A stretch of 64,000 nucleotides of DNA from an uncultured Phycisphaeraceae bacterium (GTDB taxonomy: Bacteria; Planctomycetota; Phycisphaerae; Phycisphaerales; Phycisphaeraceae): NCBI GenBank assembly GCA_964427135.1, contig CAYRTH010000002.1, positions 12,732-76,731 on the forward strand, given 5' to 3'. The position numbers and the translations under genes are program-made. Positions 34,865 to 55,161 of the stretch are shown here, piece after piece (the stretch's first letter is position 1; the number at the start of each line of letters is the position of its first letter). The notes beneath the pieces were generated by a model. That model searched no databases. It worked only from the letters and a program-made list of their open reading frames with translations, and was not told the origin of the DNA.

Positions 34865-35064
34865 CAAGCCAAGTACGAATCGGCACCGTAGTTGACGATG
34901 AGGGCTTGGGTATTTTTTATGTCCAAAGTCCAAAGTCACGAATAGTATTTGACCATGGACTTTGGACCTGTGACTTTGGACGCACCAGATACCCAAGCCC
35001 TCGGCTTCCCCCGGGGGTCAGCCTCGTTCTTGGCTTGGTAAATCCGAAATTCGAAATTCGAAAT
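34865..35064. repeat. About 200-bp inverted-repeat mosaic (CAAGCC..GGGTAT cores, central TCCAAAG word pair, terminal TCGAAAT array)
   Basis: Left core at 34865-34913 and right core plus array at 34989-35064. The centre holds GTCCAAAGTCCAAAGTCAC and GTGACTTTGGAC. Confidence 0.75.
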
Positions 35065-35846: not shown

Positions 35847-36300
35847 CCACGAAGTCACGAAGGACACGAAGAAGACCGAAAACATATTGCCGAACCAAAC
35901 AGGGGCCATTGAACAACGCCAAGACGCCAAGTAGATCATCATGGATCGTGAACTTCACCCAGAGTTTCACCGCAGAGTACGCAGAGAGCGCCGAGCAGAA
36001 AGGTGCTGAGTGCTCGGAGCTTGTGGTTAGGTTAAACCGCATCATTTTTGAATCTACCCAGGCGCTCGCCATTTGGTATCTCTGCGTTCTCCGTGTTCTC
36101 TGCGGTGTCAACATGCCGATGAAGTACGGCTGGCCATGGTTGCTGGTCAAGGCAATCGTCAAGAACAGTAAATGAATATCGCAGTAAGCACAGAGGTGAT
36201 TTTGCAACCCCCTTTTTCTTCGATTACTTCCTCTTCGTGTACTTCGTGACTTCGTGGCCCCTCTCTGCTTGGCAACTTGGCCCCTTGGCGGCTTGGCGTT
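35847..36300. repeat. Tandem-word inverted-repeat mosaic (CACGAAG, GCCAAG and GCAGAGA words)
   Basis: A 35847-35874, B 35925-35941, C 35965-35992, C' 36077-36110, A' 36228-36257, B' 36267-36300. Confidence 0.8.
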
Positions 36301-38505: not shown

Positions 38506-38848
38506 CTGGTGGGGTAGGCGTCCCGCCTGCCAATGGGCGACCAAGCCCATTTCGAACGACACCGTGCATGAACATGAGCCTTCGGCTCATTGACAGGCCA
38601 GAGGCCTGCCCCACCCAGACCTGTGATGAAACAATCTTTTAGCGCCGCGACTTGTCGCGTCTCTTGTAGCCCAGCCGCCCCCGGCTGGGTGAATCATCAT
38701 TGACAATCACACCGCCGAGGGCGGCGGTGCCACATGAAGCGTGGTGGTGCAAACATCATCAATTCGTAAGCAATGAATACCCGGGCCTTCGGCCTGTCGG
38801 CCTCATTCCCGGCTTGTTAAATCCGAAATCCGACCTTCGAAATTCAAA
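38506..38848. repeat. Cluster of short GC-rich hairpin repeats (BIME-like) ending in a core plus 7-mer array abutting the guaA stop
   Basis: Includes GTAGCCCAGCCGCCCCCGGCTGGGTG (38666), CACACCGCCGAGGGCGGCGGTGCCACA (38705) and AATACCCGGGCC...GGCTTGTTAAATCCGAAAT (38775). Confidence 0.8.
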
Positions 38849-40510
38849 TCATTCCCACTCGATCGTCGCCGGGGGTTTGCTGGAAATGTCGTACACCACC
38901 CGGTTGATGCCGCGCACTTCGTTGATGATGCGGTTGCTGATGACCGCCAGGACATCGTAGGGAATGCGCGCCCAGTCTGCGGTCATGAAATCCTGCGTTT
39001 CCACCGCCCGCAGCGCAATCACCTGGTCATACGTTCGGCCATCCCCCATCACACCCACCGCCCGCACCGGCAGCAGCACCGCGAAGACCTGACTGGTTTT
39101 GCGATACAAATGGTTGGCGACGATTTCCTCCAGCAAAATTTCATCCGCGTCCCGCAACAGGTCCAGTTGCGGCTTGCTCACTTCGCCCAAACAACGCACC
39201 GCCAACCCGGGGCCGGGGAACGGGTGTCGCCAAACCATCTGTTCGGGCAGCCCCAGCACCTGGCCGAGCATACGTACTTCATCCTTGAACAAAGAGCGCA
39301 AGGGTTCGATGAGTTCAAAGCCCAGTTGTTCGGGCAGGCCGCCGACGTTGTGATGCAGTTTGATATTGGCAGCCGTGCCCGCGTAACCCTGACCCGATTC
39401 GATCACGTCCGGGTAAAGCGTGCCCTGCGCTAGATAGCGAATTTCGAATGTCGAATGTCGAATTTCGAATTTGTCAGAAGCTTGCTTAGGTTGATTGGCT
39501 TGCGCACCGTCGTTTTGTAATTGATGAGCTGTTTGCTTGAACACCTCGATGAACCGGTGACCGATGCGTTTGCGTTTGTCCTGTGGGTCGGCGATGCCCT
39601 GTAAATCACTCAAAAATTGTTCAGCAGCATCAATCACGCGCAGGTCGATGTCAAAGTGACCACGGAAAGTCGATTCGACCAGGTCGCGTTCCCCTTTGCG
39701 GAGTAAACCGTTGTCCACAAAAATGCAGGTGAGTTGTTTGCCGATGGCCTTGGCCAGCAGAGCGGCTACAACGGAGGAATCGACTCCGCCGGATAAACCG
39801 CAAATCACCCGGCTAATGCCAACGCGCTGACGGATGATTTCAATCTGTGATTCCAGAAAGTCGGTCATGCGCCAGGTGCCGGTGCAGCCGCAGATGCCAA
39901 AAAGGAAATTGCGCAGAATGTCGATGCCGTGGGGCGTGTGGGTGACTTCGGGGTGAAACTGCACCCCGTAAAAATCGAGCTTACGATGCTTCACCGCAGC
40001 AATCGGGCAGGTGGGCGTGGTGGCCAGGGGTTGAAAATCGTCGTTGAGTTGGGTCACCTGATCGCCGTGGCTCATCCATACGGTGGTGTGCGCCGGCACC
40101 CCCGGAAATAATCGATGAGCACCGGTGACCTGCAATGCAGTACGACCAAATTCACGAGCCGGGTTGCCTTGGACCTTGGCGCCCAGTAGTTCGCAGCCGA
40201 TTTGCATGCCGTAGCAGATGCCAAGGACAGGCACGCCCAGATCGAAAAGTCGTTTGTCACAGGTGGGGGCGTTGTTTTCATAGACACTCGCCGGGCCGCC
40301 GGAAAGAATGATGCCCATGGGGGCGATGGCCTTCAAGTCTTCAACAGCAATGTTGGGCGGAACCAGCACCCCAAAGACCCCTGCTTCACGCACTCGGCGG
40401 GCGATGAGCTGAACATACTGTGAGCCGAAATCCAGAATGGGTACGATTTCCGTCACCCCGGACGGAATTTCGAGTTTGCTGCGATCGATGCGGATCACGG
40501 GCATGGTCAT
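38849..40510 (-). CDS. guaA: GMP synthase (glutamine-hydrolysing)
   Basis: GATase domain (GICYGMQ), ATP-PPase motif SGGVDSSV and C-terminal ...PPATIEWE. Confidence 0.95.
39437..39514. repeat. In-frame repeat-derived insertion within guaA
   Basis: A TCGAAT(G/T) array at 39437-39472 plus adjacent sequence encodes [26 protein letters not shown] just before the conserved [13 protein letters not shown]. Confidence 0.7.
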
Positions 40511-40597
40511 GGTGCGTTCCTTGGAAAAGAACGATCATATCACCAGCCGATGCGTGTGTTGGGCGCGAGGTGATCGCAACGATCATGATTGCACTTA

Positions 40598-40622
40598 GCC
40601 CACGGTCAATGACCGGGGGCAC
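40598..40622. repeat. Hairpin repeat GCCCACGGTCAATGACCGGGGGCAC
   Basis: Variant of the 20006/35731 family, located in the guaA/aroB divergent spacer. Confidence 0.7.
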
Positions 40623-40649
40623 AATGTCAAAAATCAAGGATTCATTGAA

Positions 40650-41735
40650 ATGTCCACCATTGACCTCACATTCCCGCAGCATCGTTACACCGTATACATC
40701 GCCCCCGGCTTGTTGCAGCAGGCCGGCTCACTCATGAAGCAGGTTGTGCCGCATGGTCAGGCCGCCCTGTTCATGGATGCAACCGTGGCCCCCCTGCATG
40801 GTCCAGCCGTGCAACAAGCATTGGTTGCTGCCGGGTATCAGGTGGTCAGTCACGCCGTGCCCAACGGCGAGGAACATAAAAACCTGGAAACGGTGCGCGG
40901 GTTGTACGAGGTGATGCTCGACGCCAAGTTGGAACGTAAAAGCCCGGTCGTGGCACTGGGCGGCGGGGTGTTGGGCGACACCGCCGGGTTCGCGGCGGCC
41001 ACGTATTTGCGGGGTGTGCCGTTGGTACAGATACCCACGACGTTACTGGCGATGGTGGATTCATCGGTGGGGGGCAAGGTGGGGGTGAATGTGCCACAGG
41101 GCAAAAATTTGATTGGGTCGTTTCATCAGCCGGGGTTGGTGGTGATCGATCCGCAGACGTTGCTGACGCTGCCCTTGCGCGAATTGCGCTGTGGTTTGGC
41201 GGAGTGTGTGAAGCATGGGGTGATTCGTCAGCCGGGCAAGTTTGTGTGGTTGAGTGAGCAACTTGAAAAAGTGATGAAGTTGGAGGTAGAGACGTTAGCG
41301 GAATTGGTGGATTGGAATGTGCGGATCAAAGCTGATGTGGTGATGAAGGACGAAAAGGAGACGGGGGAACGGGCACACCTGAACTTCGGCCACACCTTTG
41401 CGCATGCGATCGAAGCAACCGCCGGTTACGGGACGTTTCATCATGGCGAAGCGGTGTCGCTGGGGATGGTGGCAGCCACGACCCTGGCGGTGAATATCGG
41501 TCGATGTGAGCGGGGGGTGTTGACGGAACTGGTGCGTTTGCTGGAACGCATCGGGCTGCCGGTACGGGCGGACAATTTGCCGGTGGTGGATGTGTTGATG
41601 CAGGCGATGACGCTGGACAAAAAGGTGGCCGGGGGCGTGGTGCGATTGGTGTTGCCGATGAAAATGGGCCAGGTGGTGGTGACGACGGATGTGCCGGGCC
41701 GTGAGATTGAAAAAGCCTGGCAGGCGATACGATGA
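40650..41735 (+). CDS. aroB: 3-dehydroquinate synthase
   Basis: 361 aa with GGGVLGDTAGFAAATYLRGV, VDSSVGGKVGVN and HGEAVSLGM. Confidence 0.92.
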   Translation: MSTIDLTFPQHRYTVYIAPGLLQQAGSLMKQVVPHGQAALFMDATVAPLHGPAVQQALVAAGYQVVSHAVPNGEEHKNLETVRGLYEVMLDAKLERKSPVVALGGGVLGDTAGFAAATYLRGVPLVQIPTTLLAMVDSSVGGKVGVNVPQGKNLIGSFHQPGLVVIDPQTLLTLPLRELRCGLAECVKHGVIRQPGKFVWLSEQLEKVMKLEVETLAELVDWNVRIKADVVMKDEKETGERAHLNFGHTFAHAIEATAGYGTFHHGEAVSLGMVAATTLAVNIGRCERGVLTELVRLLERIGLPVRADNLPVVDVLMQAMTLDKKVAGGVVRLVLPMKMGQVVVTTDVPGREIEKAWQAIR

Positions 41736-42322
41736 ATTTCGGATTTAGCGGGACGACCCGCTGTTGAAGCCGTCGGATTTCGGATTTTGAATTGATGTTT
41801 GATGTTTAGCGCGGACGCTTCGCGTCGGCGTGCTTGATGCCGTGCCCTTCAGGGCCGGATTCGGGGTATGAAATCCGGGGCTATAGCCCTCGGCGTCAGT
41901 GTGTGTCGTGGCATCACCGCATTCGACGATGTGACAAAGCCGCCGATGGCATCGGCGGTCGGTTTGACTCGATGAGTGACAAATCAAGGATGCAATCAAG
42001 ACGGCGGATACCATCCACCGCTTTGTGAATCACACCGCCGAGGGCGGCGGTGCCACAATCAAAATACGCGCGGGTGCCTGTGGCACGTCTGCGTGCCACA
42101 GAAGCTTGTTGCTGTGGGCAGGCAAAATCGCCTGCCCACAGGCACCCAGGGCAAACAGGTATCATTCACGCGACCACTTCTTTTTACCGATTCGCCGATT
42201 CACCGCGCAGAATACCCAGGCCCTCGACCTCCCCCGGGGATCGGTCTCGTTCCCGGCTTGGTAAATCCGAAATTCGAATTTCGACGGCTTCAACAGCGGG
42301 TCGTCCCGCTAAATCCGAAATT
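41735..42322. mobile_element. About 588-bp composite non-autonomous element bounded by perfect 41-bp terminal inverted repeats
   Basis: 41735-41775 is the exact reverse complement of 42282-42322. The interior is built from other repeat families (41835-41898, 41936-42025, 42028-42057, 42072-42146, 42210-42281). No ORF with coding character. Confidence 0.75.
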
Positions 42323-42330
42323 TTTCTTCC

Positions 42331-44808
42331 TCAAATCCCCAAGGCACTGCGCCGCAATAATTCCTTCACACCGCTCGGCCGTTGCACCTGATACCCCGAG
42401 AGCGGAATCACATGTTCATGAATCGCGTCGAGTATGTCATTGGTGAACGGGAAGAAAGTATCTTCCACCTCATCAGCCGGGGTGATCCAATTCCGTGCCC
42501 CCACCACCACCGGCGGAGCATCCAACTCATCAAACGCAAGCTGCGTGATTTTCGCTGCCATCGTCTGCAACACACTGCCCCGTTCACACGCATCGCTGGC
42601 CAGTACGATCTTGCGCGTCTTTTTCACCGATTCCAACACCAGCGTGTAATCAAAGGGCACAATGCTGCGGGCGTCGATCACTTCCACCGACAACCCATAC
42701 TGTTCCTCCAACACCTTGGCAGCCTCCAGCGCCCGATACAACGTCGCACCCACGGTCAAAATCGTCAGGTCCTTGCCGACCTTTTTCACGTCAGGCTGAC
42801 CCATCGGTATTTCGTATCGACCTTCGGGCACTCCGCCAGCCGCAAACATCTCCGGCATGTCGTACAGCCGTTGACTTTCGAAAAACACCACCGGGTCTGT
42901 GCCCAGCAGTGCCGAGTACATCAAACCCTTGGCGTCATACGGCGTGGCCGGGAACACCACCTTCAATCCCGGAATATGCGCACACAAAGCCGTCCAATCC
43001 TGACTGTGCTGCGCCCCGTATTTACTGCCCACCGACACCCGCAACACCACCGGCATCTTCAACAACCCGCCCGACATCGACTGCCACTTGGCGAGCTGGT
43101 TGAATATTTCATCGCCCGCCCGGCCCATGAAATCGCAGTACATCAATTCCACCAGCGGCCTGCCACCTTCCAACGCATACCCCACCGCCGATCCGACAAT
43201 CGCGCCTTCACTGATCGGTGAGTTAAACAGCCGATGGTAAGGCAACGCCTCGGTCAACCCGCGATACACCGCAAACGCCCCGCCCCAGTCACGGTTTTCC
43301 TCCCCGTAAGCCACCAGCGTCGGGTCGGTGTAAAACATATCCAAAATCGCTTCAAACAAAGCGTCGCGCATCAGTATGCACTTGCTCTTGGCAACAGGTT
43401 TGCCCGACGCATCAACCCCATTGCGCGACTTACCCACCAAACTTTTACTGCGCGGGTTGTCCGCTTTGTTTTCAATCAACACCTCCGGCTTACGGTCTTC
43501 CAACTTTTCCATACGACCGTTGGAAAACATCGTCTGTTCCAGCAAATTGCCCGGCTGCATCAGGTCCGCACGGGGGCTGATCTTCAAATCGATCGCCTTC
43601 TGATAACAACGCAGCATCATCGCATCGATGCCCGCCTTCATCGCATCGATGTCGCCCTGCTTGCACACGCCCGCTTCGACCAGTTGCTGACCGAACACAT
43701 GCAACGGGTCCTGCTGCTGCCAGGCTTCGACTTCCTGTTTGTCACGGTAGCTCGACGCATCCGACGGCGAATGCCCTGAAAACCGGTAGGTGACCGTATC
43801 CAGCAACACCGGGCCGTCGCCTTTTTCGATGATCGCTTTTTTCCGACCGATGGCATCGACCACCGCCAGCGGGTTGAAGCCGTCGATGCGCTCGGCGTGC
43901 ATCTGATTAGGGCACAACCCGGCACCCAGCCTTGCCAGCATTTTGAAACCCATGGTTTCGCCCACGGGTTGGCCGCCCATCCCGTAAAAGTTGTTGACGA
44001 AATTGACGATCAGCGGCAGGCCGTGTTTGTGGGCCCCGGTCCACAGTTCCTTGAACTGGTCCATGGTGGCAAAGCAAAGCCCTTCCCACACCGGCCCGCA
44101 CCCAGCCGAGGCATCGCCGATGTTGGCGATCACCACCCCCGGTTTGCGATTGACATGTTTGAACAGGGCTGCCCCGACCGCGATGTCGCCCGATCCGCCG
44201 ACGATGGCGTTGTTGGGGTAAATGCCAAAGGGCGGAAAGTAGGCGTGCATCGACCCGCCCAACCCTTTGTTGAACCCGGTTTCGCGAGCGAAAATTTCCG
44301 CCAATGCCCCGTACACCAGGTAATCAATCGCCAGTTCGCGCGTCGTGCCTTTGAACCCCTGTTCGACGACTTTGAGGCACTGCCCGCCGAAGTAATCTTT
44401 CATCAGGCTCATCAGCCGGGCGTCGTCGAGCTTGGCGATGGCGGACAAACCCTTGGCCAGAATTTCACCATGACTGCGGTGCGAACCATAAATATGGTCA
44501 TCGACGGTCAGCAAATACATTTCGCCCACGGCTGTCGCTTCCTGTCCGATCGACAGATGCGCCGGCCCGCGATGGTTGTATTCAATCCCCTGATAGTTGC
44601 CCTGACGCTTGACGCTGTCGAGCATCATTTCAAAGGCGCGAATCACCATCATGTCGAACTGAATGCGCAACAAGTCGGCTTTGGTGAACCTGCCGCCGAC
44701 CAATTCGTCCTTGATCGACCGGTCATAGCTGTTGACCGGGATGGGCTGAAAGGTGATCTGCGCTTTGCTGCGCGCGGTTTTGGGGTCGATCATGATACTT
44801 TTGGGCAT
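42331..44808 (-). CDS. Fused E1 alpha-beta subunit of a 2-oxoacid/acetoin-type dehydrogenase complex (TPP-dependent)
   Basis: 825 aa. The N-half is E1-alpha-like ([23 protein letters not shown]). The C-half is E1-beta-like ([25 protein letters not shown], transketolase C-like end). Confidence 0.85.
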
Positions 44809-44839
44809 GGGTAGGCTCCAGTACGGCTTTGGATTTCAA

Positions 44840-44972
44840 TTTTCACCACAGAGACAACATGTGGCTGGGTGCTAGTGACTGGGTGCTGGGCAGAATGGCT
44901 GGTGGTGGTTGTTTTTTTCTAGCCACCAGCTACCAACTCCTAGCTTCCCTTTTCTGTGCCTCTGTGGTGAAT
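44840..44972. repeat. Inverted-arm element (TTCACCACAGAG ... CTCTGTGGTGAA) with internal CTGGGTGCT words and a hairpin
   Basis: Read directly. The right arm overlaps the last 11 codons and the stop of the DeoR ORF. Confidence 0.7.
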
Positions 44973-45800
44973 GCTTTGCGTTTCCGCTTCCGACTCCGGT
45001 TGCGGGTAAATCACTTCAATATTGTGTTCCCGGAAAAACGCCAGCCAGTGTTCATCCGGCGTCTGATCGGTGACCAGTTTCTGTATTCGTGGCCAATCGA
45101 CCAGCTTGAAGAGCGATGCGCTCTGAAACTTGCTGTGATCGACCACCACAATGGTTTCGCGGGCGTGTTGCACCGCCAGTCGGTACAAGTGGGCGCTGTC
45201 GATGTCGGCAGCCGAGGGACCAAAATCCATCGCCAGGCCGTCGGCCCCGATGAAGCATTGAAACCCGCGCAGTTGTTCAAGGGTGCTGGTGGCAATCGGG
45301 CCGATGGTGTCCATGCGATCGGGGCGATATTGTCCGCCGAGCATGATGAGACTGAGGTTGCCCATGCCGTTGCCAGCCGGACCGGTGCTGGTGTTGTGGG
45401 CAACGCCTTGCAATTCCATGGCCAGTCGGGTGCTGTTCAAAATGATGGACAGATTGCGACGACGGCGCAGGTGGGCTGCCATTTCAAAACAGGTGGTGCC
45501 CGAATCCAAAAATATTTGATCGTTGTCGGTCACCAGTTCCGCCGCCAAAGCCCCGGCCACTTTTTTGGCGTCCAGGTTACGCAGGTGCTTGGCATCAAAG
45601 GAAAACCCCGACACCGGTGACAATGTGGCTCCGCCATGCACGAGGGTGAGTTTGCCATCGTCGGCCAGGCTGCGCAAATCACGCCGAATGGTCGCTTCGC
45701 TGACGGCCAGCAAAGCCGACAGATCGCGCACGGTCAGGTGGGTTTTGTCCACCAGCCCGCCAAGGATGCGATCCCGTCGTTGAGCCGTCGCCATCGACAT
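44940..45800 (-). CDS. DeoR-family transcriptional regulator
   Basis: Start MSMATAQRRDRILGGLVDKTHLTVRDLSALLAVSEATIRRDLRSL (HTH) followed by a DeoR C-terminal sensor domain. The ORF-track N-terminal extension is rejected. Confidence 0.85.
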   Translation of the reverse strand: MSMATAQRRDRILGGLVDKTHLTVRDLSALLAVSEATIRRDLRSLADDGKLTLVHGGATLSPVSGFSFDAKHLRNLDAKKVAGALAAELVTDNDQIFLDSGTTCFEMAAHLRRRRNLSIILNSTRLAMELQGVAHNTSTGPAGNGMGNLSLIMLGGQYRPDRMDTIGPIATSTLEQLRGFQCFIGADGLAMDFGPSAADIDSAHLYRLAVQHARETIVVVDHSKFQSASLFKLVDWPRIQKLVTDQTPDEHWLAFFREHNIEVIYPQPESEAETQSIHHRGTEKGS

Positions 45801-45927
45801 TCGAACATCACTCCAATTTGCACATAGTGAACACCAAAACGTCAAAAAAGTCAATAGAATATTCAATATAATCATAAAATGTACTTGACTTGTGACGGAT
45901 TTTATCTAATTTAGTCAATATCGACAT

Positions 45928-45991
45928 CAAGCCGACAAGCCGAGTACGAAGACAAGCCGAGTACGAGGCCGACAGGCCGAGGGCTCGGGTA
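45928..45991. repeat. CAAGCCGA(C/G)... tandem words plus GGCCGAGGGCTCGGGTAT core
   Basis: caagccgacaagccgagtacgaagacaagccgagtacgaggccgacaggccgagggctcgggtat. Confidence 0.75.
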
Positions 45992-46058
45992 TGTTTGGTG
46001 CTTCCAAGCATTGTGAAGCGATGACCAAGGCTTGGTCTTGTATGAAATCAGGTGACCC

Positions 46059-47714
46059 ATGGCCGAGTTGAAATTGCCCGACAAACTGCCCTCACCACAA
46101 GCGACCCTGCGTCGTTGGCTGGTGCAACCCGGCCAAGCGTTTGCCATGGGCGCAACCTTGGCGGAATTGGAATTGGAAGAGGCGCTGATTCACCTATTCG
46201 CCCAGCAGCCGGGCGCGGTGGGCAAGGCGTTGGTATCACCGGGGCAGACCGTCGCAGCCGGGGCAACCTTGGCGCTGCTTACCACCTCCGAGGGCGGGGG
46301 CACGGTGACTGCGAGCACGGGTCATACATCATCGGTCGTTCATCAACAAACCAATTCGTCAGCGGGGAAGGACAAACCCATGACTCAAAGCTCAGCCGGC
46401 AGTGCAACACCGATTTTGATGCCCCAGGCCGGGAACACGATGGAAGAAGGCCGGGTGCTTGCATGGAAAGTCAAAGAAGGCGACACCATCACGGTCGGCC
46501 AGGTGATTTGTGAAATTGAGACCGACAAGGCGACGATGGAATTTGAATCACCCATCGCTGGCAAGCTGGCCAAAATCGTGGTGCCCGAAGGCGAAGCCGC
46601 CCCGGTGAAAACGCCGATTGCGTTTGTCGGAGAGGGGGACATTTCGAATATCGGATTTCGGATTTCGAATTTGGAAAACAACCCGGCGGCTACCAATCAA
46701 TCAACCCCTGCAGCCGCGGACACACAAACAACCACTTCCGAAAATTCCAATTCCGAAATTCGAAATTCGAAATTCGATGGTCGTCCGAAAATATCACCTG
46801 CCGCTCGAGTCATCGCAGCACAACAAAACCTCGACCCGGCAGCGCTGGCAGCCGTTGGTAACGGTTCAGGGCCGGGCGGTCGGATATTGAGCAGCGATGT
46901 GGCAGGGTTGGCCAGTCGTTTGACCACGCAGGCCACAAGTCAGACACGCCCTCACCCTAATGTGAGCGCAGCGAGCACTCCTACTCTCCCGGAGGGAGAG
47001 GGGACCAAAGCCAAGCCCCCATCTGCGATCACCAGTACCCCCTGGGTCGATGGCATCACGCGCAGGCCGATGTCGAAAATGCGTCGGGCGATCGGTTTGA
47101 ATTTGCAACAATCCAAGCAGACCGTGCCGCATTTTTATGTGCGGCAGACCATTGATGCCCAGCCGTTGATCTCTTATCAAAAAGCCATGAAACAACTGGC
47201 CGGGTGTTCGATCAACGATTGCATTTTGTACCTGCTGGCCCGCACCATGAAATCGTTCCCCGCGTTTCGCAGTCGGCTGGAAGGTGACACGATCGTCGAA
47301 TACGCAGCCGTGAACCTGGGCGTGGCGGTGGGTATCGACGATGGGCTGGTCGTGCCGGTGCTGATGAATGCCGATACTCGATCATTGGCGGATTTATCGG
47401 CTGAAACCAAACGCATCATCGAAAGCGCCCGCAAAGGCAAGCTCGAAAACCTGGGCAAAACCAGTTTCACCGTCAGCAACCTGGGCATGTTCGGCATTGA
47501 GGAATTCGCAGCCATCATCAACCCCCCGGAAGCGGGCATATTGGCCGTGAGCGCCGCCCGTGAAGGCGTGCTGGTGAAGGGCGGAGCACTGCGGGCAGGG
47601 CAGGTGATGACGCTGACGATTTCCGCCGACCATCGCATCGTCGATGGCATGCTGGCGGCCCAGTTCATGGCGGCGTTCAAACTCAACCTCGAAAACCCGG
47701 GCAATGTGGCATGA
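46059..47714 (+). CDS. Dihydrolipoamide acyltransferase (E2) with one degenerate and one canonical lipoyl domain
   Basis: Lipoyl domain 2 carries EIETDKATMEF. A PSBD (SPAARVIAAQQNLDP...GPGGRILSSDV) and a catalytic domain (DHRIVDG) follow. Confidence 0.9.
   Translation: MAELKLPDKLPSPQATLRRWLVQPGQAFAMGATLAELELEEALIHLFAQQPGAVGKALVSPGQTVAAGATLALLTTSEGGGTVTASTGHTSSVVHQQTNSSAGKDKPMTQSSAGSATPILMPQAGNTMEEGRVLAWKVKEGDTITVGQVICEIETDKATMEFESPIAGKLAKIVVPEGEAAPVKTPIAFVGEGDISNIGFRISNLENNPAATNQSTPAAADTQTTTSENSNSEIRNSKFDGRPKISPAARVIAAQQNLDPAALAAVGNGSGPGGRILSSDVAGLASRLTTQATSQTRPHPNVSAASTPTLPEGEGTKAKPPSAITSTPWVDGITRRPMSKMRRAIGLNLQQSKQTVPHFYVRQTIDAQPLISYQKAMKQLAGCSINDCILYLLARTMKSFPAFRSRLEGDTIVEYAAVNLGVAVGIDDGLVVPVLMNADTRSLADLSAETKRIIESARKGKLENLGKTSFTVSNLGMFGIEEFAAIINPPEAGILAVSAAREGVLVKGGALRAGQVMTLTISADHRIVDGMLAAQFMAAFKLNLENPGNVA
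46641..46778. repeat. In-frame inverted-arm element in the E2 lipoyl-PSBD linker
   Basis: Arms are atttcgaatatcggatttcggatttcgaatttgg and ccaattccgaaattcgaaattcgaaattcgat. Translated as ISNIGFRISNLENNPAATNQ...SENSNSEIRNSKFD. Confidence 0.75.
46945..47003. repeat. In-frame copy of the CACGCCCTCACCCT..CTCCCGGAGGGAGAGGG hairpin in the E2 PSBD-catalytic linker
   Basis: The intergenic copy is at 49601-49637. The coding copy carries an internal insertion of about 27 nt and is translated as RPHPNVSAASTPTLPEGEG. Confidence 0.65.
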
Positions 47715-47724
47715 GGTTTTGAAA

Positions 47725-47986
47725 TTTCACCGCAGAGAACGCAGAGAACGCAGAGAAAACAATAAAAAGTACTTCAAGCCAAGATTTGGTGAGATCCATA
47801 CGAAGTAATCGAATCGGAAGACGCCCCAAAAGGATGAAGAAGCACAGATTATGAATAATATTACTCAACGAGGTATAGCAGAGATTCATTTCTATGCTTT
47901 GAACATGACTAATCATCCATGATTGCCCTTGCCATTGATATGAAATTGTTTTTGTCTCTGCGATCTCTGCGATCTCTGCGGTGAAT
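47725..47986. repeat. MITE-like element with GCAGAGAA-word inverted arms and an AT-rich core
   Basis: The left arm tttcaccgcagagaacgcagagaacgcagaga and the right arm tctctgcgatctctgcgatctctgcggtgaat show 2 mismatches in about 30 nt. Lies between E2 and E3. Confidence 0.8.
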
Positions 47987-48024
47987 CTCGGCTCTGTCCT
48001 GCTGCAAAATCAAGAAGCGTGTAA

Positions 48025-49515
48025 ATGAATATGACAAACGATCAATACGACATACTCGTTTTGGGAGCAGGCCCGGGGGGTTATATCGCCGCGCTCAAAG
48101 CAGCGCAACTGGGCGCGAAAGTCGCCATCGTCGAAAAACATCACTTGGGCGGCACGTGCCTGAACTACGGCTGCATTCCGTCCAAGGCACTGCTGGCCAG
48201 TGCGGAGCTTTTGCACGGCATACACCACGCCAGGGACTACGGCATCAGCGTGCCAGCGGGGGTCAGCTTTGACTGGTCCGCGATCCAGCAGCGCAAAGAC
48301 AAAGTGCTTCGTCAACTGCGCGGCGGGATCGGCTCGGCATTCAAAAATCGTGCCGTGACTTTGCTACCGGGATTGGGGCGATTTGATGGGTCGGTCAATC
48401 AGGTGGTGGTGGACCCGACGCAAGCCGACCCCAAACCCCCGGCCACGGGGGCGGGGACTGGTAACCAGCCGGGGTCGCCGTATGCGGTGCAGGCCAAAAA
48501 CGTGATACTGGCGGTGGGCAGTGTGCCGGTGCGTATTCCGGGTTGGCCGGGGGATGTGAATATCGTGTGTACGTCCGACGAGGCGGTGCATTGGAAGAGC
48601 TTGCCGACGAAATTGCTGATTGTGGGCGGGGGGGTGATTGGTTGTGAGTTTGCGTGTCTGATGAATGCGATGGGGGTGCAGGTGACGGTGGTGGAATTGC
48701 TGCCGAGGTTGCTGCCGACGCTGGATGGTGAACTGGGCGCGGGGCTGGAAAAAATATTCAAAGCCCGGGGCATCACGCTGCATCTGCAAACCAAAGTCGA
48801 TGATTTGAAACTCAATGCCGCAGGCACCGGGGCGGTGGCGCAATTGTCGAGCAGCACCAAGCTGGAAGTCGATCGTGTGCTGGTGTGTGTGGGGCGGGCA
48901 CCCAATACCAAAAACCTGGGGCTGGAAACGCTGGGCGTGAACCTGTCGAAAAAGGGGTTCGTACCGGTGGACGACACGATGCAGACCAACAAGCCGGGGT
49001 TGTACTGCATCGGTGACGCCAATGGACGATGCTTGCTGGCTCATGCCGCCAGTGCTCACGGTGTTGCGGCGGTGGAAAACGCCCTGGGGCATGGTCATGG
49101 GTTCACAGCACCGATACCCTCGGCGGTGTACACGTTCCCGGAAGTCGGTGCGGTGGGCTTGTCACAGGAAGAATGTGCTGCTCAGGGGTTACCCGTGTCG
49201 ATTGGTCGATTCCCGCTGGGGTATTTGGGCAAAGCCATGGCTGCGCTACACACCGAAGGGTTTGTGAAGGTGATCAGGCATCGTGAAACCGATGCGATTT
49301 TGGGCGTGCACATATTGGGTCACAATGCCACGGAATACATTGCTGCAGCGGGAACGATGGTGCATCAAAAAGCGAGCGTGCACGACCTGGCGGAAGTGGT
49401 GTTTGCCCATCCGACCTTGAGCGAGGCGATCAAAGAGTCGGCGGAGGATGCGCTGGGCATGGCCCTGCACCTGCCCCCACGGAAGATTCACAAACTCGAG
49501 GCGGTGATGGTGTGA
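48025..49515 (+). CDS. lpdA: Dihydrolipoyl dehydrogenase (E3)
   Basis: Motifs GAGPGGY, GGTCLNYGCIPSK and a C-terminal dimerisation motif HPTLSE. Confidence 0.92.
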   Translation: MNMTNDQYDILVLGAGPGGYIAALKAAQLGAKVAIVEKHHLGGTCLNYGCIPSKALLASAELLHGIHHARDYGISVPAGVSFDWSAIQQRKDKVLRQLRGGIGSAFKNRAVTLLPGLGRFDGSVNQVVVDPTQADPKPPATGAGTGNQPGSPYAVQAKNVILAVGSVPVRIPGWPGDVNIVCTSDEAVHWKSLPTKLLIVGGGVIGCEFACLMNAMGVQVTVVELLPRLLPTLDGELGAGLEKIFKARGITLHLQTKVDDLKLNAAGTGAVAQLSSSTKLEVDRVLVCVGRAPNTKNLGLETLGVNLSKKGFVPVDDTMQTNKPGLYCIGDANGRCLLAHAASAHGVAAVENALGHGHGFTAPIPSAVYTFPEVGAVGLSQEECAAQGLPVSIGRFPLGYLGKAMAALHTEGFVKVIRHRETDAILGVHILGHNATEYIAAAGTMVHQKASVHDLAEVVFAHPTLSEAIKESAEDALGMALHLPPRKIHKLEAVMV

Positions 49516-49534
49516 AGCAAGTGGTCGATTAAAA

Positions 49535-49637
49535 ACCAAGCCGGGAACGAGGCTGACAAGCCGAGGGCCCGGGTATGTGGGTCGATGAATCAACATTAAA
49601 CCACGCCCTCACCCTCTCCCGGAGGGAGAGGGAACCC
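49535..49637. repeat. ACCAAGCCGGGAACGAG...GGGCCCGGGTAT core plus CCCTCTCCC-GGA-GGGAGAGGG hairpin
   Basis: Read directly. The families are shared with 55111-55161 and 46945-47003. Confidence 0.8.
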
Positions 49638-49644
49638 AACCATC

Positions 49645-50925
49645 ATGAACAACTCGTTCACACAAAACTTGTCAGCACTGGGCCACTCCGATGAACTTTG
49701 GCAGGCGGCGCGCGACTTGAAAGCGTTACCCGCCCCACGACCGCATAATGCGCATGTGCATTTGCCCCCGAATTTCAGCGCGTTTACGACGGTGGAGCAG
49801 GCGGTGCAATTGGCACAAGCTCAATCACTGGTCGGGCTGGGCACAGCCAACTATTACGACTACACCGTTTACGATCAGTTTGCCCCACTCGCGCAACAGG
49901 CGGGCGTGTTTCCGCTTTTGGGCCTTGAAATATTGAGCATGGATGATGGGTTGCGTCAGGCAGGCATCAAGGTCAACGACCCGGGCAACCCCGGCAAAGT
50001 GTACCTGTGCGGCAAAGCGATCCAACCTTCAGCCTCACAGTTTTCCGCCAAGGCACGCAACACCATCGAACGCATTCGTCAGGGGGATGCAGAGCGCCTG
50101 GCGCAAATGATCGACAAACTCGAAACTTACCTGAAGCAGCAGGGCACACCCACAGGGCTGAACTATGCCCGCATTGTCAAGCGGGTCGTGGCCCGTCATG
50201 GCTGCCCAGCCCAGACAGTGTTTTTACAGGAACGGCACGTCGCGCAGGCGTTTCAAGAATTATTGTTTGAAAAATTACCAGGCGCCCAACGGCTTGAAAA
50301 ACTCAGCGGATTGCTGGGCGCAACGACCAAAGCCAAGTCGCCCGATGATGCGGTGACAGTGCAGAACGATTTGCGTTCACACCTGCTCAAGGCGGGCAAA
50401 GTGGCGTTTGTGCCTGAACCATTTATTCAACTGGAAGAAGCCCGCGCCCTGGTGCTGGAATTGCGCGGAATACCCGCATACCCCGTGCTGGCGGACGGCG
50501 CTTCGCCCATCTGCCCGTTTGAAGACCCGGTGAGTGCGTGCATTCATGAACTCAAAAAACGCAAATTGCATGCGGTGGAGTTAATCCCTGTACGCAACAG
50601 CCCGCAGGTGTTGTCGCAGTATGTACAGGCGTTTCGCGCTGCGGGGCTGGTTGTGACAGCCGGGACGGAACACAACACCCTCGACTTGCTGCCGATGGCG
50701 CCGACTTGCGTGAAAGGTGCGGCAATCCCCGCGGAAGCGGCGGCTGTGTTCTGGGAAGGGTTTTTGGTACTGGTCGCTCATCAATACCTGACCAGTGTCG
50801 GAGCACCAGGGTTTGTGCAAAGCAGTGGTGAACCGTGTGCTGGTTTTGCGAATGCCGATGAGCGCATCTGCGCGTTTGCAAAATTGGGCGCGGTGGTGTT
50901 GGAAAGGTTTGGGTCAGGGCATTAA
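49645..50925 (+). CDS. Hypothetical protein, possible metal-dependent hydrolase (N-terminal HxH)
   Basis: 426 aa. The segment NAHVHLPPNFSAF near the N-terminus suggests a PHP/amidohydrolase-like metal site. No confident family. Confidence 0.4.
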   Translation: MNNSFTQNLSALGHSDELWQAARDLKALPAPRPHNAHVHLPPNFSAFTTVEQAVQLAQAQSLVGLGTANYYDYTVYDQFAPLAQQAGVFPLLGLEILSMDDGLRQAGIKVNDPGNPGKVYLCGKAIQPSASQFSAKARNTIERIRQGDAERLAQMIDKLETYLKQQGTPTGLNYARIVKRVVARHGCPAQTVFLQERHVAQAFQELLFEKLPGAQRLEKLSGLLGATTKAKSPDDAVTVQNDLRSHLLKAGKVAFVPEPFIQLEEARALVLELRGIPAYPVLADGASPICPFEDPVSACIHELKKRKLHAVELIPVRNSPQVLSQYVQAFRAAGLVVTAGTEHNTLDLLPMAPTCVKGAAIPAEAAAVFWEGFLVLVAHQYLTSVGAPGFVQSSGEPCAGFANADERICAFAKLGAVVLERFGSGH

Positions 50926-51187
50926 CCACGAAGACACGAAGGACACGAAGAAGAAATCAGAAATGATGTGACAAGTTGAAGGCGACAACGCCAAGACGCC
51001 AAGATAGGAAGACGCCAAGAAGAAGGAACCGACCAAGCAAACATGAACAATCAATAGAAAATATTGAGTCAAGAAACGAACTCGATACGGTTGTTCTGTG
51101 AGAAAAAAATAGTTTCTTTCGGTGGCTCGTTTGCTTCTTCGTGTCCTTCGTGTCTTCGTGGCCAACACTCTTCTTGGCGACTTGGCG
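50926..51187. repeat. Tandem-word inverted-repeat mosaic (CACGAAG and GCCAAG words) with a perfect 28-nt inverted repeat
   Basis: A at 50926-50953 is the exact reverse complement of A' at 51134-51161. B at about 50987-51026 pairs with B' at 51168-51187. The element starts 1 nt after the stop codon. Confidence 0.85.
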
Positions 51188-51243
51188 AAAAAAGATCGCA
51201 GAGCAGACCGTTTGCATTTTGCATGAATTAAAGGACTGGAACC

Positions 51244-53271
51244 ATGGCTTGGCCGACGTTTGCAGCAAGTGATGACCCGGTGGAAGTTTTGGTGAAGCTG
51301 TCGCGCTACTACGGCGGTGACGCTGATTTTGTATTGGCGGGGGGCGGCAACACCTCGGTGAAAATCAGCGATCGACTGCACATCAAGGCCAGTGGTTACC
51401 CGTTGGCAACACTCACCCGCGACGGACTGGTCGAACTGGACCGCTCCCGGTTGACAACCTTGCTGCAAAGCGACCTTGGTCATGACCGGTGGCAACGCGA
51501 AGAACGTTTCAAAAGCGCGATCATGGAAAGTCGTATCGATCCTTCGGCGGGTCGTCGGCCTTCGGTCGAGTCGGTGGTGCATCATGTCGTGCCGGGCCAA
51601 TATGTGGTGCATACCCATGCGACCGTGGCCAATGCCTTGACGTGCTGTGTGCAGGGCGAGGCTTTGTGTCGCAAGTGGTTTGGGGAAGCGGTGCTGTGGG
51701 TGCCGGTGGTCGATCCGGGGTTTGTGCTGGCGCAGACGATTCACCAGTTATTGCAACAACGCAGCGATCAGGGCAAAGGTGTGCGTGCCATACTCATGGC
51801 CAATCACGGGCTGATCGTGTCGGGTGATACGCCGCAAATCATTCGTGAAAATACCGACTTTGTGTTGCAAACCATTGGAGCGCACCTGGGGCTGGATTGG
51901 GAACAGGCACTGGGTACCCCCGTGGGCATCGACAGCCCGCGTTTGTTGGTGAACACCATCGCGCCCTTGTTGCGCGGGTTGCTGGCCGACGACGCGAAGT
52001 TGAAAGTGGTTGCTTTCGATGACAGTGACCGGGTGATGCGACTGGTGGGTACAGCGTTGGGTAAACAACTGGTCATGAGCGGGCCGCTGACCCCCGATCA
52101 GATTGTGTATTGCAACAGCTACCCGTTGTGGGTGGAAGTGAACCCCTCAACCGACGCCCCGGCCCTTGCACAACAATTGCGCCAGGCCATTGAGCAACAT
52201 CGTCAAAGCAAAGGCGACCAGCCCAAAGTGGTGCTGGTGGCGGGGCTGGGGCTTTTTGCCATCGGCGATGACCCGGCAGGGGCGGCCACGGTGCGCGAAT
52301 TGTACCTGGATGCGATTCGTATCATGAGCGGGGCGCAGCGACTGGGCGGCGTGCATCACTTACCCGATGACCAACGCAAATTCATCGAAAACTGGGAAGT
52401 GGAAGCGTATCGCAAATCGATCGCCAAATTGAACGCAGGCAAAGTGGGTCGCGCGGCAGGCAAGGTGGCGGTGGTGACCGGGGCAGCCCAGGGTTTTGGG
52501 CTTGAAATCGCGCAATCATTTGCAGGCGAAGGCGGCTGCGTGGTGCTGACGGATTTGAATCACGCAGCGGCGGAGGCAGCGGCAAGTACGTTGTGTGAAA
52601 AACTGGGGCGCGGCAGGGCGATTGCATTACCCATCAACGTGACCGACAGTGCTTCGGTGGCTGAGTGTCTGCATCAGGTGGTGCGAACCTTCGGCGGGTT
52701 TGATGTGTTCATCAGCAATGCTGGGGTGCTCAAAGCCGGCAGCGTGAAAACGCAGGCGGTGAAGGATTTCGATTTTGTCACCGCGGTGAACTACAAGGGT
52801 TACTTCGTCTGCGTGCAGCAGGCAGCCCCGATCATGGGGTTGCAGCGACTGGCGCAGCCGACGTATTTGTCGGACATCATTCAAATCAATTCAAAGTCGG
52901 GTTTGCAGGGCAGCAACAAAAACGGGGCGTATGCGGGCAGCAAGTTCGGGGGTATCGGGCTGACGCAATCATTTGCGCTGGAATTGATTGAGGACGGCAT
53001 CAAGGTGAACTCGATTTGTCCGGGTAATTTTTTCGATGGGCCGTTGTGGAGTGACCCGAACACTGGGTTGTTTGTGCAATACCTGAGGACGGGCAAGGTG
53101 CCGGGGGCGAAAACGATTGAGGACGTGAAAAAGTTTTACGAGGCGAAGGTGCCGATGGGCCGGGGGTGCACGACGCCGGATGTGATGAAAGCGGTGTTTT
53201 ATTTGATGGAGCAGCAATACGAAACCGGGCAGGCGGTGCCCGTCACCGGCGGACAGGTGATGCTGAATTGA
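51244..53271 (+). CDS. Bifunctional class II aldolase/adducin-domain plus short-chain dehydrogenase (RhaEW/YuxG-like)
   Basis: 675 aa. The N-half is aldolase-like (GGGNTSVK, HTHA). The C-half is an SDR (VTGAAQGFG, YAGSKFG). Confidence 0.8.
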   Translation: MAWPTFAASDDPVEVLVKLSRYYGGDADFVLAGGGNTSVKISDRLHIKASGYPLATLTRDGLVELDRSRLTTLLQSDLGHDRWQREERFKSAIMESRIDPSAGRRPSVESVVHHVVPGQYVVHTHATVANALTCCVQGEALCRKWFGEAVLWVPVVDPGFVLAQTIHQLLQQRSDQGKGVRAILMANHGLIVSGDTPQIIRENTDFVLQTIGAHLGLDWEQALGTPVGIDSPRLLVNTIAPLLRGLLADDAKLKVVAFDDSDRVMRLVGTALGKQLVMSGPLTPDQIVYCNSYPLWVEVNPSTDAPALAQQLRQAIEQHRQSKGDQPKVVLVAGLGLFAIGDDPAGAATVRELYLDAIRIMSGAQRLGGVHHLPDDQRKFIENWEVEAYRKSIAKLNAGKVGRAAGKVAVVTGAAQGFGLEIAQSFAGEGGCVVLTDLNHAAAEAAASTLCEKLGRGRAIALPINVTDSASVAECLHQVVRTFGGFDVFISNAGVLKAGSVKTQAVKDFDFVTAVNYKGYFVCVQQAAPIMGLQRLAQPTYLSDIIQINSKSGLQGSNKNGAYAGSKFGGIGLTQSFALELIEDGIKVNSICPGNFFDGPLWSDPNTGLFVQYLRTGKVPGAKTIEDVKKFYEAKVPMGRGCTTPDVMKAVFYLMEQQYETGQAVPVTGGQVMLN

Positions 53272-53285
53272 TGGAGTATGTGCAC

Positions 53286-53360
53286 TGACGCCGAGGGCTT
53301 TAGCCCCGGATTGTTTTGAATGTCGCCGATGCCCATCCGGCCCTGAAAGGCTCGGCGTCA
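53286..53360. repeat. Palindromic element, TGACGCCG...CGGCGTCA family (reverse orientation)
   Basis: TGACGCCGAGGGCTTTAGCCCCGGAT...ATCCGGCCCTGAAAGGCTCGGCGTCA. Confidence 0.9.
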
Positions 53361-53397
53361 ACAGCGTCATGAATGGTTCGAAAATGTCCGACACGCG

Positions 53398-55047
53398 ATG
53401 ACCAATCAAGGATTTGCCATGACAAATGCCACGCTTCCGACGACGCAACAGGCTGTGCAACTGGTCGGCCCGGGTGAACTCAAACTCAACCCGGCGAAAA
53501 AAGTACCCACGCCCGGCCCGCATGAAATACTGGCCAAGGTTGAGGCGGTCGGGTTGTGCTTTTCCGACCTGAAACTGCTCAAACAATTTGACACCCATGC
53601 CCGCAAGAGTGAAGTGGTGGCGGGGCTGTCGCCGGAAACGTTGGCCCAAGTGCAAAGTTATGTGCCGGGCAAAAAGCCGACGGTGCCGGGCCATGAGGTG
53701 GTGTGCCGAATCGTGGCTGTGGGCAGCCAGGTCAAACATCACAAGGTCGGCGAACGCTGCCTGGTACAGACCGACTACCGGGACCTGCCGACCGCCAACT
53801 CGGCCTCGGCATTTGGTTACAACTTCGAAGGCGCGCTGCAGGAATACATCGTCATGGACGAGCGCGTGGTGGTCGATTCGAAGGGGCAGCGATATCTGAT
53901 TCCGGTGAGTGAAGAAAAAAGTTCATCAGCGGTGGCGCTGGTGGAACCCTGGGCCTGCGTGGAAGATTCATACGTCACCCGTGAACGGCAAACCATCAAA
54001 CCCATGGGGCGATTACTGGTGGTGGCGACACCGGGCGCCAGTTTCGATGGTCTGCCCAGGGCCTATTCACCCTCAGCGCCCCCGGCTCAGGTGACGGTGA
54101 TCGCCCCCGATGCCGCAGCGACGCAACCTGATGAAGGGTTTGATGACATTGTGTATTTCGGAGCGGACAAATCGGTGATCGAAATTTTGAATGACAAGCT
54201 CGCTTCACGGGGCATCATCAACATCGTGCTGGGCGGTCAAAAAATCGGGGCCCCGGTGAACGTCGGTGTGGGTCGGGTGCATTATGGCTTGACACGCTGG
54301 GTTGGCACCACCGGCAATGACCCGGCCCAGTCATATCAAAACATACCGGCCACGGGCGAGGTGCGCGCGGGGGATCGTATATTGGTCGTCGGGGCGGGTG
54401 GGCCGATGGGTCAGATGCACGTGCTGCGCAATGTCAGTTTGGGCTTGGCGAACCTGCACCTGGTGGGCACGGACATGGATGACCCCCGGCTTGCCTCGTT
54501 GCTGCATAAAGCACAACCCCTGGCGGACAAATTCGGCGTGAAGCTCGAGCTGGTCAACACCAAAACCAGCAAACTGACGGGCAGGTTCAGTTACATCGCA
54601 CTCATGGCCCCGGTGGCGCCGCTGGTGGCACAAGCCGTGGTCGATGTCAGTGATAACGCGATCATCAATATTTTCGCGGGCATCCCCGCCCCGGTGAAAC
54701 AGGTGATGGATTTGGACGCCTACATCAGCAAAAAGTGTTTCATGTTCGGCACGAGTGGTTCGACCATTGCCGACATGATGATCGTGCTGGACAAGGTGGA
54801 AAAAGGATCACTGGACACCAATGCGTCACTGGATGCGGTCAGCGGTATCGCCGGGGCGATTGATGGTATTGCTGCGGTGGAAAACCGCACCCTTGCGGGC
54901 AAAATCATGGTGTACCCGATGCTGCGTGAGTTGCCGTTGACACCGCTGACGGAACTGGCGAAAAAATTTCCGACGGTGGCCGCCAAGCTCGATCGTGGCC
55001 AGTGGACCAAGGCAGCGGAAGAGGAGTTGTTGAAGGTGGCGCGGTGA
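53398..55047 (+). CDS. Atypically long zinc-type (MDR) alcohol/polyol dehydrogenase
   Basis: GroES-like N-domain (GPHEILAKVEAVGLCFSDL, PGHEVV). The Rossmann motif VVGAGGPMGQ appears only near residue 330. An alternative ATG is at 53419. Confidence 0.7.
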   Translation: MTNQGFAMTNATLPTTQQAVQLVGPGELKLNPAKKVPTPGPHEILAKVEAVGLCFSDLKLLKQFDTHARKSEVVAGLSPETLAQVQSYVPGKKPTVPGHEVVCRIVAVGSQVKHHKVGERCLVQTDYRDLPTANSASAFGYNFEGALQEYIVMDERVVVDSKGQRYLIPVSEEKSSSAVALVEPWACVEDSYVTRERQTIKPMGRLLVVATPGASFDGLPRAYSPSAPPAQVTVIAPDAAATQPDEGFDDIVYFGADKSVIEILNDKLASRGIINIVLGGQKIGAPVNVGVGRVHYGLTRWVGTTGNDPAQSYQNIPATGEVRAGDRILVVGAGGPMGQMHVLRNVSLGLANLHLVGTDMDDPRLASLLHKAQPLADKFGVKLELVNTKTSKLTGRFSYIALMAPVAPLVAQAVVDVSDNAIINIFAGIPAPVKQVMDLDAYISKKCFMFGTSGSTIADMMIVLDKVEKGSLDTNASLDAVSGIAGAIDGIAAVENRTLAGKIMVYPMLRELPLTPLTELAKKFPTVAAKLDRGQWTKAAEEELLKVAR

Positions 55048-55050
55048 AGA

Positions 55051-55161
55051 AGTGGCCAAGTGGCCAAGTGCGTTCAATATTTTGAATTTCGAATTTCGAA
55101 TTTCGGATTTACCAAGCCGGGAACGAGACCGACCCCCGGGGGAGGCCGAGGGCCCGGGTAT
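55051..55161. repeat. GGCCAAGT 8-mer array plus TTCGAAT 7-mer array plus ACCAAGCCGGG..GGGTAT core
   Basis: Read directly. Starts 4 nt after the stop codon of the dehydrogenase gene. Confidence 0.85.

Follow-up and report, generated by a model that had tools for sequence, protein, structure and literature searches.

In a 64-kb contig window from a member of the Phycisphaeraceae (Planctomycetota), the gene for the glutamine-hydrolyzing GMP synthase, guaA, carries a short in-frame insert, part of which is a heptanucleotide array. The window is the whole of that stretch of DNA, and all positions are given in its numbering. The explanation that we favor, and consider probable rather than secure, is that the insert is an old, vertically inherited loop of GuaA that derives from a heptanucleotide array, changes in steps of 21 nt, and is tolerated as a disordered segment on the surface of the enzyme. 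It would be an example of junk-like repeat DNA turning into protein sequence in an essential enzyme gene.

The presence of a 7-nt repeat in an essential gene is unusual, since the slip of any single unit is a frameshift, and this constraint can be seen as a three-unit difference between relatives. The interest lies less in the single insert than in a family-wide hot spot and in a series that leads from repeat to peptide. One loop of the enzyme is filled by simple or palindromic arrays in many lineages, and in one large clade the translated repeat is now a conserved part of the protein. Such a series, in which a repeat of intergenic kind is first tolerated as an insert and then fixed as a peptide, can be traced here outside the case of the Rickettsia palindromic elements (RPEs).

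The insert and its place in GuaA

The guaA gene occupies 38849 to 40510 on the minus strand and encodes 553 amino acids in an intact reading frame. In HMMER searches, its product matches solved structures from end to end (7sbc, E=5e-178; 1gpm, 2e-169; also 5tw7). The match to 7sbc is broken at GuaA residues 333 to 356 (window 39443 to 39514), where 7sbc has a single residue. The spacing from EVF to LAQGT is 35 residues in the window protein compared to 12 in the solved enzymes, and the extra segment, between FIEVF and LAQGTLYPD, comes to 22 to 24 residues. This agrees with the roughly 23 extra residues proposed in the sequence-only reading, a model's earlier account of this DNA made from its letters alone. 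Counted in codons, the insert adds 23 compared to 7sbc and 22 compared to the sister genome L037.

The DNA of the insert consists of five AAATTCG-type heptamers and about 45 nt of unique sequence, much as the sequence-only reading had described it (a 7-mer array with adjacent DNA). On the coding strand, the non-array part comes first (39473 to 39517, minus strand; CAAAACGACGGTGCGCAAGCCAATCAACCTAAGCAAGCTTCTGAC). It is unique and fast-evolving and encodes 15 residues. The array follows at 39438 to 39472, also on the minus strand, with two units of AAATTCG, two of ACATTCG, and a final AAATTCG. Tandem Repeats Finder (TRF) reports it with period 7, 5.0 copies, and 92% matches, and it encodes 12 residues. 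As read from its sequence, AAATTCG is free of stops in all six frames, and an array of it is thus readable wherever it lands. All of guaA aligns with L037 except the hypervariable loop segment at 39431 to 39533 (minus strand), which is 103 nt long in the window and 37 nt in L037.

An AlphaFold2 model of GuaA, built on a 42-sequence alignment, has a mean predicted local distance difference test score (pLDDT) of 80, with a helix at residues 309 to 337, a coil at 338 to 356, and a strand at 357 to 361. The pLDDT falls to 48 to 69 over residues 331 to 360. The model fits a disordered loop extension just ahead of the strand that leads into the conserved LAQGTLYPD. A location in a surface loop had been suggested before; the segment is modeled as a low-confidence coil at the helix-to-strand connection, and HMMER skips it against solved GuaA.

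At the level of RNA, the segment from 39431 to 39533 folds at -13 kcal/mol, no better than its shuffles (z = -0.29; second estimate, z = -0.68), and no palindrome or long hairpin was found in the window guaA insert. Neither was an inverted partner found inside it; no terminal inverted repeats are visible, and there is no repeated body. No target-site duplication is visible at the insert, although the flanks have diverged from those of L037 and are hard to read in this respect.

Closest relatives and the age of the insert

When GTDB genomes were scanned with guaA, the window fell within the Phycisphaeraceae. The relatives that bear on the age of the insert are the sister genome L037 (GCA_964547135.1) and the next relative, L081, a Logan contig; a sister contig, L164, is used below. 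Outside the loop, the amino acid identity of GuaA to the window protein is 93.6% in L037, 87.9% in L081, and 80.5% in L001, and sequence comparison places the genomes as ((window, L037), L081), L001. To either side of the loop, the guaA genes of L037 and the window have a nucleotide identity of 86% to 91%; they differ only at 39431 to 39533, as defined by the blastn breakpoints, where the window segment is 66 nt (22 codons) longer. The loop is 13 amino acids long in L037 and 28 in L081.

The insert of L081 has the same layout as that of the window: a non-array stretch of identical length, then AAAACCG and AAATTCG. The two non-array parts agree in register at 19 of 44 positions, compared to 11 +/- 2.8 expected (p = 0.005). 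This part has evolved faster than the gene around it, with 43% in-register identity versus 80% for the nucleotides of the gene. The window has five heptamer units and L081 has two, so that the arrays differ by exactly 21 nt, or 7 amino acids. With a unit of 7 nt, no step below three units would leave guaA in frame.

Since the outgroup L081 carries a homologous insert, the insert predates the split between the window and L037, and L037 has lost it. The presence or absence of the insert in sister strains had been named earlier as a check. The sister genome does lack it, but the outgroup has it, and the window insert is not recent. The finding of a homologous insert in an independent Logan assembly (SRR24236060) also rejects an assembly artifact. 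A search for closer relatives in the Joint Genome Institute (JGI) metagenomes gave a best match of 74% identity.

The same loop across the Phycisphaeraceae

Across about 280 Phycisphaeraceae GuaA sequences, the loop is hypervariable and ranges from 12 to 54 amino acids. Among the 120 best homologues, it is 12 amino acids long in 49 and 20 in 38, with the rest between 16 and 54. The lengths 13, 20, 27/28, and 35 form a ladder with steps of 7 amino acids. In the 20-amino acid class, the consensus KQTADQ[IL]KSE[IF]xNQKSEIK[FY] is what (AAATCAG)n literally encodes, and the peptide has a period-7 signal (identity of 0.17 at offset 7 versus 0.03 to 0.08 at other offsets). Perfect DNA arrays are present in the loops of other genomes, and their words differ: AAATTCG x4.7 in L021, ACATCCG x4.7 in L001, CAATCAT in L036, and AAATCAA in L002. 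In L012, L015, and L024, the loop peptide is kept and the DNA repeat is lost.

The concentration of arrays at this site is high. Over 154 loci, the loop has 1.58 arrays per kb, the flanks have 0.074, and guaA outside the loop has 0.02, a density about 77-fold below that of the loop. The frame is kept in all of the more than 160 guaA orthologues examined, with no frameshifted allele among them. An apparent guaA match of 2.2 kb in L113 proved on inspection to be a normal gene. A segment of the same length and similar sequence was not found in orthologues from repeat-free relatives; yet many orthologues hold array-derived segments at the exact site, which recasts the single insertion event of the sequence-only reading as an old, hypervariable, repeat-bearing loop.

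In another clade of the family, represented by L087 (an ERZ869936 contig), L089, L090, L049, and L026, the guaA loops are 40 to 54 amino acids long and hold nested inverted arrays, for example, (GGGCCAA)x4 (GGRRACA)x4 (RATCCRC)x4 (CTTGGCC)x4. The loops of L087 (z = -9.0), L089 (-6.7), L090 (-4.8), and L049 (-3.5) fold well beyond their shuffles and are strongly palindromic array composites, and the loop inserts of this clade are true in-frame palindromic elements. The loop of L026 combines an octamer array with a heptamer array, and that of L057 holds a hairpin-like insert, CCAAGCC...GGCTTGGG.

Dispersed copies of the heptamer in the window

The heptamer word family of the guaA array is common in the intergenic spacers of the window, as had been noted from the sequence. 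With one mismatch at most, TCGAATKTCGAAT has 15 matches in the window, compared to 0.2 expected, and none of 100 shuffles reaches 15. Besides the array in guaA, at least nine arrays of the family lie in the 64 kb, at 19029, 19110, 35040, 38819, 41773, 42263, 46641, 46742, and 55079; those at 19029, 35040, 38819, 42263, and 55079 belong to the spacers named in the sequence-only reading. The family also occurs in the sister L164. It is the dominant array family in this genome, matched by 7 of the 15 other arrays against a background of 2.7%. In the genomes of L021 and L001, the guaA word was not found among the arrays in 20 kb of flanking DNA. Nearly all of the 7- to 9-nt arrays in the window start 1 to 50 nt past a stop codon, and the only real genes with arrays of at least 4.5 copies inside them are guaA and the gene for a 2-oxo acid dehydrogenase E2.

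Of the whole insert, the heptamer array alone recurs as dispersed copies within the 64 kb searched. A significant match to the non-array part, taken as 45 to 51 nt, was absent from the window, from 163 loci, from the E2 insert, and from the hairpin cores described below; with the insert as query, blastn-short returned array matches (L021) and noise only from the window and 80 loci. The sequence-only reading had aligned the non-array part with the E2 insert. This candidate was rejected: local alignment gives at best a 9-mer, CAATCAACC (shuffle p = 0.049), and no significant blastn-short match lies in the window. The supporting argument, that the guaA and E2 peptides are read in the same frame, is empty, since every 21 nt a 7-nt array has run through all three frames. 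A relationship between the non-array part of the window or L081 and six intergenic hairpin cores was likewise rejected (every p > 0.48). The whole window has no match in Rfam at the gathering thresholds.

Five arrays of the AAATTCG family are attached, as seen in an alignment, to a GC-rich hairpin that spans CAAGCC to GGGTAT. One belongs to a composite right after the guaA stop codon (38778 to 38848, minus strand; fold z = -3.71), which consists of the inverted array UUUGAAUUUCGAAGGUCGGAUUUCGGAUUU followed by the GC-rich hairpin CAAGCCGGGAAUGAGGCCGACAGGCCGAAGGCCCGGGUAU. This post-stop array is the reverse complement of the array inside the open reading frame (ORF), and when the 3′ 721 nt of the guaA mRNA are folded, the minimum free energy (MFE) and centroid structures alike pair the two arrays across about 590 nt. 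Neither L037 nor L081 has the composite downstream of guaA, and without the array in their 3′ untranslated region (3′-UTR), the long-range pairing is probably incidental.

The composite at 19029 to 19136 (plus strand) begins 1 nt past a stop codon and is made of (ATTTCGG/ATTTTGR)x4.6, the core CAAGCCAAGGACGAGGAACGCAGTGACGAGGACTTGGGTAT, and a (GTCCAAA/GTCGAAA) array. Its two arrays pair, and the fold has a z-score of -5.03. Further intergenic arrays on hairpin cores, placed by TRF and alignment, include that at 35040 to 35064 (minus strand); another at 42263 to 42284 (minus strand), 47 nt past the stop of the gene at 42331 to 44808 on the same strand; and an ATTTCGA array at 55079 to 55110 (plus strand), 32 nt past the stop of the gene at 53398 to 55047. 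The 41-nt core CAAGCCAAGGACGAGGAACGCAGTGACGAGGACTTGGGTAT is found at gene ends in the window (19063 to 19103, plus strand; 57410 to 57450, minus strand), in L037 (2818 to 2858), and in L164 (3302 to 3342). It is 97.6% identical between sister genomes, compared to 72% at the third codon positions of guaA, and each copy is bordered by different arrays. A scan for this core in viral contigs found none. A second type of core, CAAGCCGGGAACGAG..CCCCCGGGGG..GGGCCCGGGTAT, lies at 35000, 38784, 42210, and 55110.

The E2 linker and the turnover of arrays between sisters

The E2 gene (46059 to 47714) has an in-frame insert of its own, in the linker that joins the lipoyl domain to the E3-binding domain. 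At 46641 to 46777 on the plus strand, TRF and translation define (ATTTCGA)x5, a core of 65 nt, and (AAATTCG)x5, with the two arrays inverted. This insert is a true palindrome (RNA fold of -46.6 kcal/mol, z = -4.45). Its arrays are conserved in the sister L164 (10319 to 10350 and 10462 to 10478), and the 65-nt core between them is unalignable.

L164 is syntenic with the window from 42333 to 55243, and its orthologous spacers hold other array words from a common repertoire. For example, the spacer at 47714 to 48025 has CGCAGAGAA where L164 (11404 to 11596) has ATGGATA/CATTATC, and the spacer at 50925 to 51244 has CACGAAGA/ACGCCAAG where L164 (14471 to 14768) has CGCAGAGAA/CATCATC. Wholly different words in orthologous spacers point to replacement and not to drift by point mutation. 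Upstream of guaA, L037 has a 160-nt composite (2790 to 2950) without a counterpart at the orthologous window positions 40511 to 40650; its parts are a AAGTGGCC array, the 41-nt core, and a CGGTGAGT array with its inverted copy.

How the loop may have arisen

If the loop is indeed inherited and derived from an array, its history could have run as follows. A heptanucleotide array, of the kind found at the 3′ ends of genes in these genomes, would have entered the loop between the helix at residues 309 to 337 and the LAQGTLYPD strand in an ancestor within the Phycisphaeraceae. Because the frame must hold in guaA, the only length changes to survive would be those of three heptamers (21 nt, 7 amino acids) or of other multiples of 3 nt. 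Within this limit, the array could expand, contract, homogenize, decay, or be deleted, and the lineage of the window would have arrived at its present loop of about 45 nt of fast-evolving unique sequence and five AAATTCG-type units. The segment is probably translated into a disordered, hydrophilic surface loop, tolerated by the enzyme and probably without a catalytic role. We infer that slippage is the mechanism, that the array came first, that the change is neutral, and that the segment is retained in the mature protein.

Of course, some observations do not sit well with this history. The perfect arrays of differing words in L021, L001, and L036 need homogenization, which is awkward with a fixed length of 20 amino acids unless three units are lost and regained or sequence is copied from other arrays. 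The match between the guaA word and the dominant intergenic word of this genome (7/15 versus 2.7%) could mean exchange with the dispersed family and not evolution confined to the locus. A neighbor-joining tree scatters the 12- and 20-amino acid classes, which would take many losses or repeated gains, and this scatter in a tree of a single protein makes counts of gain and loss from these data unreliable. This history also offers no source for the 45-nt non-array part.

[quoted passage not shown] The window insert would then be a decayed half-element or would have been refreshed by copying from the dispersed AAATTCG arrays. We consider this unlikely for the window insert, even though it would explain the palindromic composites in exactly the GuaA loop of L087, L089, L090, and L049, the hairpin-like insert of L057, and the palindromic array pair in the E2 linker. 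The change of array words between orthologous spacers of sisters, the composite upstream of guaA in L037 that is missing in the window, the near identity of the 41-nt core between genomes with just 72% identity at third codon positions, and the equality of the guaA word with the dominant word of the genome also favor it. However, the window insert is not palindromic, and neither the cores, nor the E2 sequence, nor anything else that was searched matches its non-array part. It has no visible terminal inverted repeats or target-site duplication, and with neither an inverted partner inside nor a multi-copy body, it falls outside the definition of a MITE. In addition, L081 shows that it is older than the split between the window and L037, the guaA word is missing among the arrays of the 20-kb flanks in L021 and L001, and no transposase was linked to the arrays.

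A role for the extension itself is improbable in our view. The peptide could modulate the neighboring ATP-pyrophosphatase lid or an interaction, or the in-ORF and post-stop arrays could pair and so shape mRNA stability or translation. The conservation of the peptide of the 20-amino acid class in lineages whose DNA repeat has decayed suggests purifying selection at the level of the protein after insertion. The predicted MFE and centroid pairing of the in-ORF array with the 3′-UTR array and the better conservation of the E2 arrays between sisters, compared to the sequence between them, are in line with a role as well. Against this, L037 gets by with no insert, a 12-amino acid loop is found in half of the relatives, evolution is far faster in the non-array part than in the gene (43% in-register versus 80% identity), and the pLDDT over the loop is low. 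L037 and L081 lack the 3′-UTR array, and the long-range pairing is thus not conserved. Hardly credible is a phase-variation switch, in which slippage by one or two units would put guaA out of frame and switch GMP synthesis off in a reversible way. The unit is not a multiple of 3, the array is within the ORF, and the copy number of arrays of the family clearly changes, which speaks for such a switch. The array has just five units, though, interrupted by variants so that no more than two identical units are adjacent; guaA is a housekeeping gene; and every one of the 160 or more orthologues is in frame, without a single frameshifted allele.

A broader idea goes beyond the inherited, array-derived loop, and we offer it tentatively, as something that may be true but that we would not yet bet on. 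The Phycisphaeraceae may possess an as yet undescribed system of 7- to 9-nt arrays, often in inverted pairs around conserved GC-rich cores, that sits directly after stop codons, is exchanged or replaced between the orthologous spacers of sisters, and has repeatedly colonized the GuaA loop and the E2 linker in frame, seeding the peptide KSEIxNQKSEI that is conserved in a large clade. The guaA array would then be one visible product of an active and possibly enzyme-driven generation or copying of arrays. If true, it would be a natural case of new protein sequence arising from selfish or structural repeat DNA.

Comparison with known repeat families

Rickettsia palindromic elements are about 100 to 150 bp long, recur over their whole length, and encode a conserved peptide (reviewed in PMC10969869). 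The window insert is like them in that dispersed repeat DNA lies in frame within a conserved metabolic gene, at a position compatible with the fold, and adds a peptide; the loop inserts of L087, L089, L090, and L049 are, like RPEs, truly palindromic. It is unlike them in that only the 35-nt heptamer array recurs while the remaining insert is unique and does not fold, the host belongs to a free-living lineage of Planctomycetota, and one site is reused across the whole family with changing repeat words. The resemblance to RPEs drawn in the sequence-only reading therefore holds for a dispersed repeat in frame in an essential, conserved enzyme and fails for the palindrome, for recurrence of the whole element, and for a recent insertion. 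The observation itself is confirmed, and its interpretation as an insertion element is partly supported.

Among tandem repeats, Vioque reportedly described, in 1997, STRR heptanucleotide arrays inside the RNase P RNA gene (rnpB) of heterocystous cyanobacteria. The STRR and window repeats share tandem 7-nt units and many dispersed, mostly intergenic arrays, which occasionally occur in a variable, tolerant part of an essential gene that stays functional. The typical features are all present here: head-to-tail 7-nt units in at least three copies, with many arrays in the genome that are mainly intergenic and near gene ends. However, the words and the phylum differ, and the STRR case concerns an RNA gene without a frame constraint, whereas guaA is limited to 21-nt steps and its repeat becomes a peptide.

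[quoted passage not shown] The window arrays are likewise over-represented near stop codons, sometimes form inverted pairs, and are variable among close relatives. In contrast, their words are AT-rich (AAATTCG) or mixed, and many words of 7 to 9 nt coexist and are attached to GC-rich hairpin cores. With the word AAATTCG and a Phycisphaeraceae host, the guaA array is outside both the named cyanobacterial STRR families and the G-rich families of Xanthomonas and Nostoc.

The repetitive extragenic palindromic (REP) elements, with the related BIME and REPIN elements, are short GC-rich hairpins repeated at gene ends (PMC3116915, PMC3733652, PMC3333891). The partners of the intergenic arrays are also short GC-rich hairpins at gene ends and are conserved between genomes beyond neutral DNA. 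Unlike REPs, they have no GTAG/CGTC tag that was noted, no gene for a REP-associated tyrosine transposase (RAYT) was identified here, and their flanking arrays have no REP counterpart; moreover, REPs are extragenic by definition. In its DNA, the insert comes closest to the dispersed heptanucleotide simple sequence repeats (SSRs), and it resembles an RPE in being read in frame within a conserved enzyme. In the literature on heptamer or tandem repeats of Phycisphaera and Planctomycetes, no description was found of such arrays in Planctomycetota. The repertoire of arrays and hairpins at the 3′ ends of Phycisphaeraceae genes may matter for transcription termination, mRNA stability, the assembly of metagenome-assembled genomes (MAGs), and gene calling.

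Other repeats in the window

Octamer and nonamer arrays are a further part of the intergenic DNA, with the words CACGAAGA, ACGCCAAG, CGCAGAGAA, AGTGGCCG, ATCACCCC, and CACTTGGC, often paired in inverted orientation and arranged as A B ... A′ B′. Their sites are 35848 to 36298, 50927 to 51188, 47731 to 47757 with 47955 to 47980, 10920 to 10946, 7747 to 7801, 18010 to 18039, and 57457 to 57493. The words CACGAAGG, AATGACC, CTTGGCG, and AAGTGGCC are shared with Phycisphaeraceae genomes that are distantly related.

The window also holds a dispersed element, distinct from these arrays and about 70 nt long, whose consensus is TGACGCCGAGGGCTTTAGCCCCGGAT..variable..ATCCGGCCCTAAAGGGCACGGCGTCA and which has no match in Rfam at the gathering threshold. 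It may be REP-like, or it may be a structured RNA that has not been described. Copies are found in the window at 19882 to 19946, 41835 to 41902, and 59653 to 59725 on the minus strand, at 55757 to 55823 on the plus strand, and at about 60804 to 60985, as well as in L164 at 5870 to 5938, 16811 to 16885, and 18748 to 18821. Its structure combines an outer stem with two local hairpins (GGGC/GCCC) and an inner stem (CCGGAT/ATCCGG).

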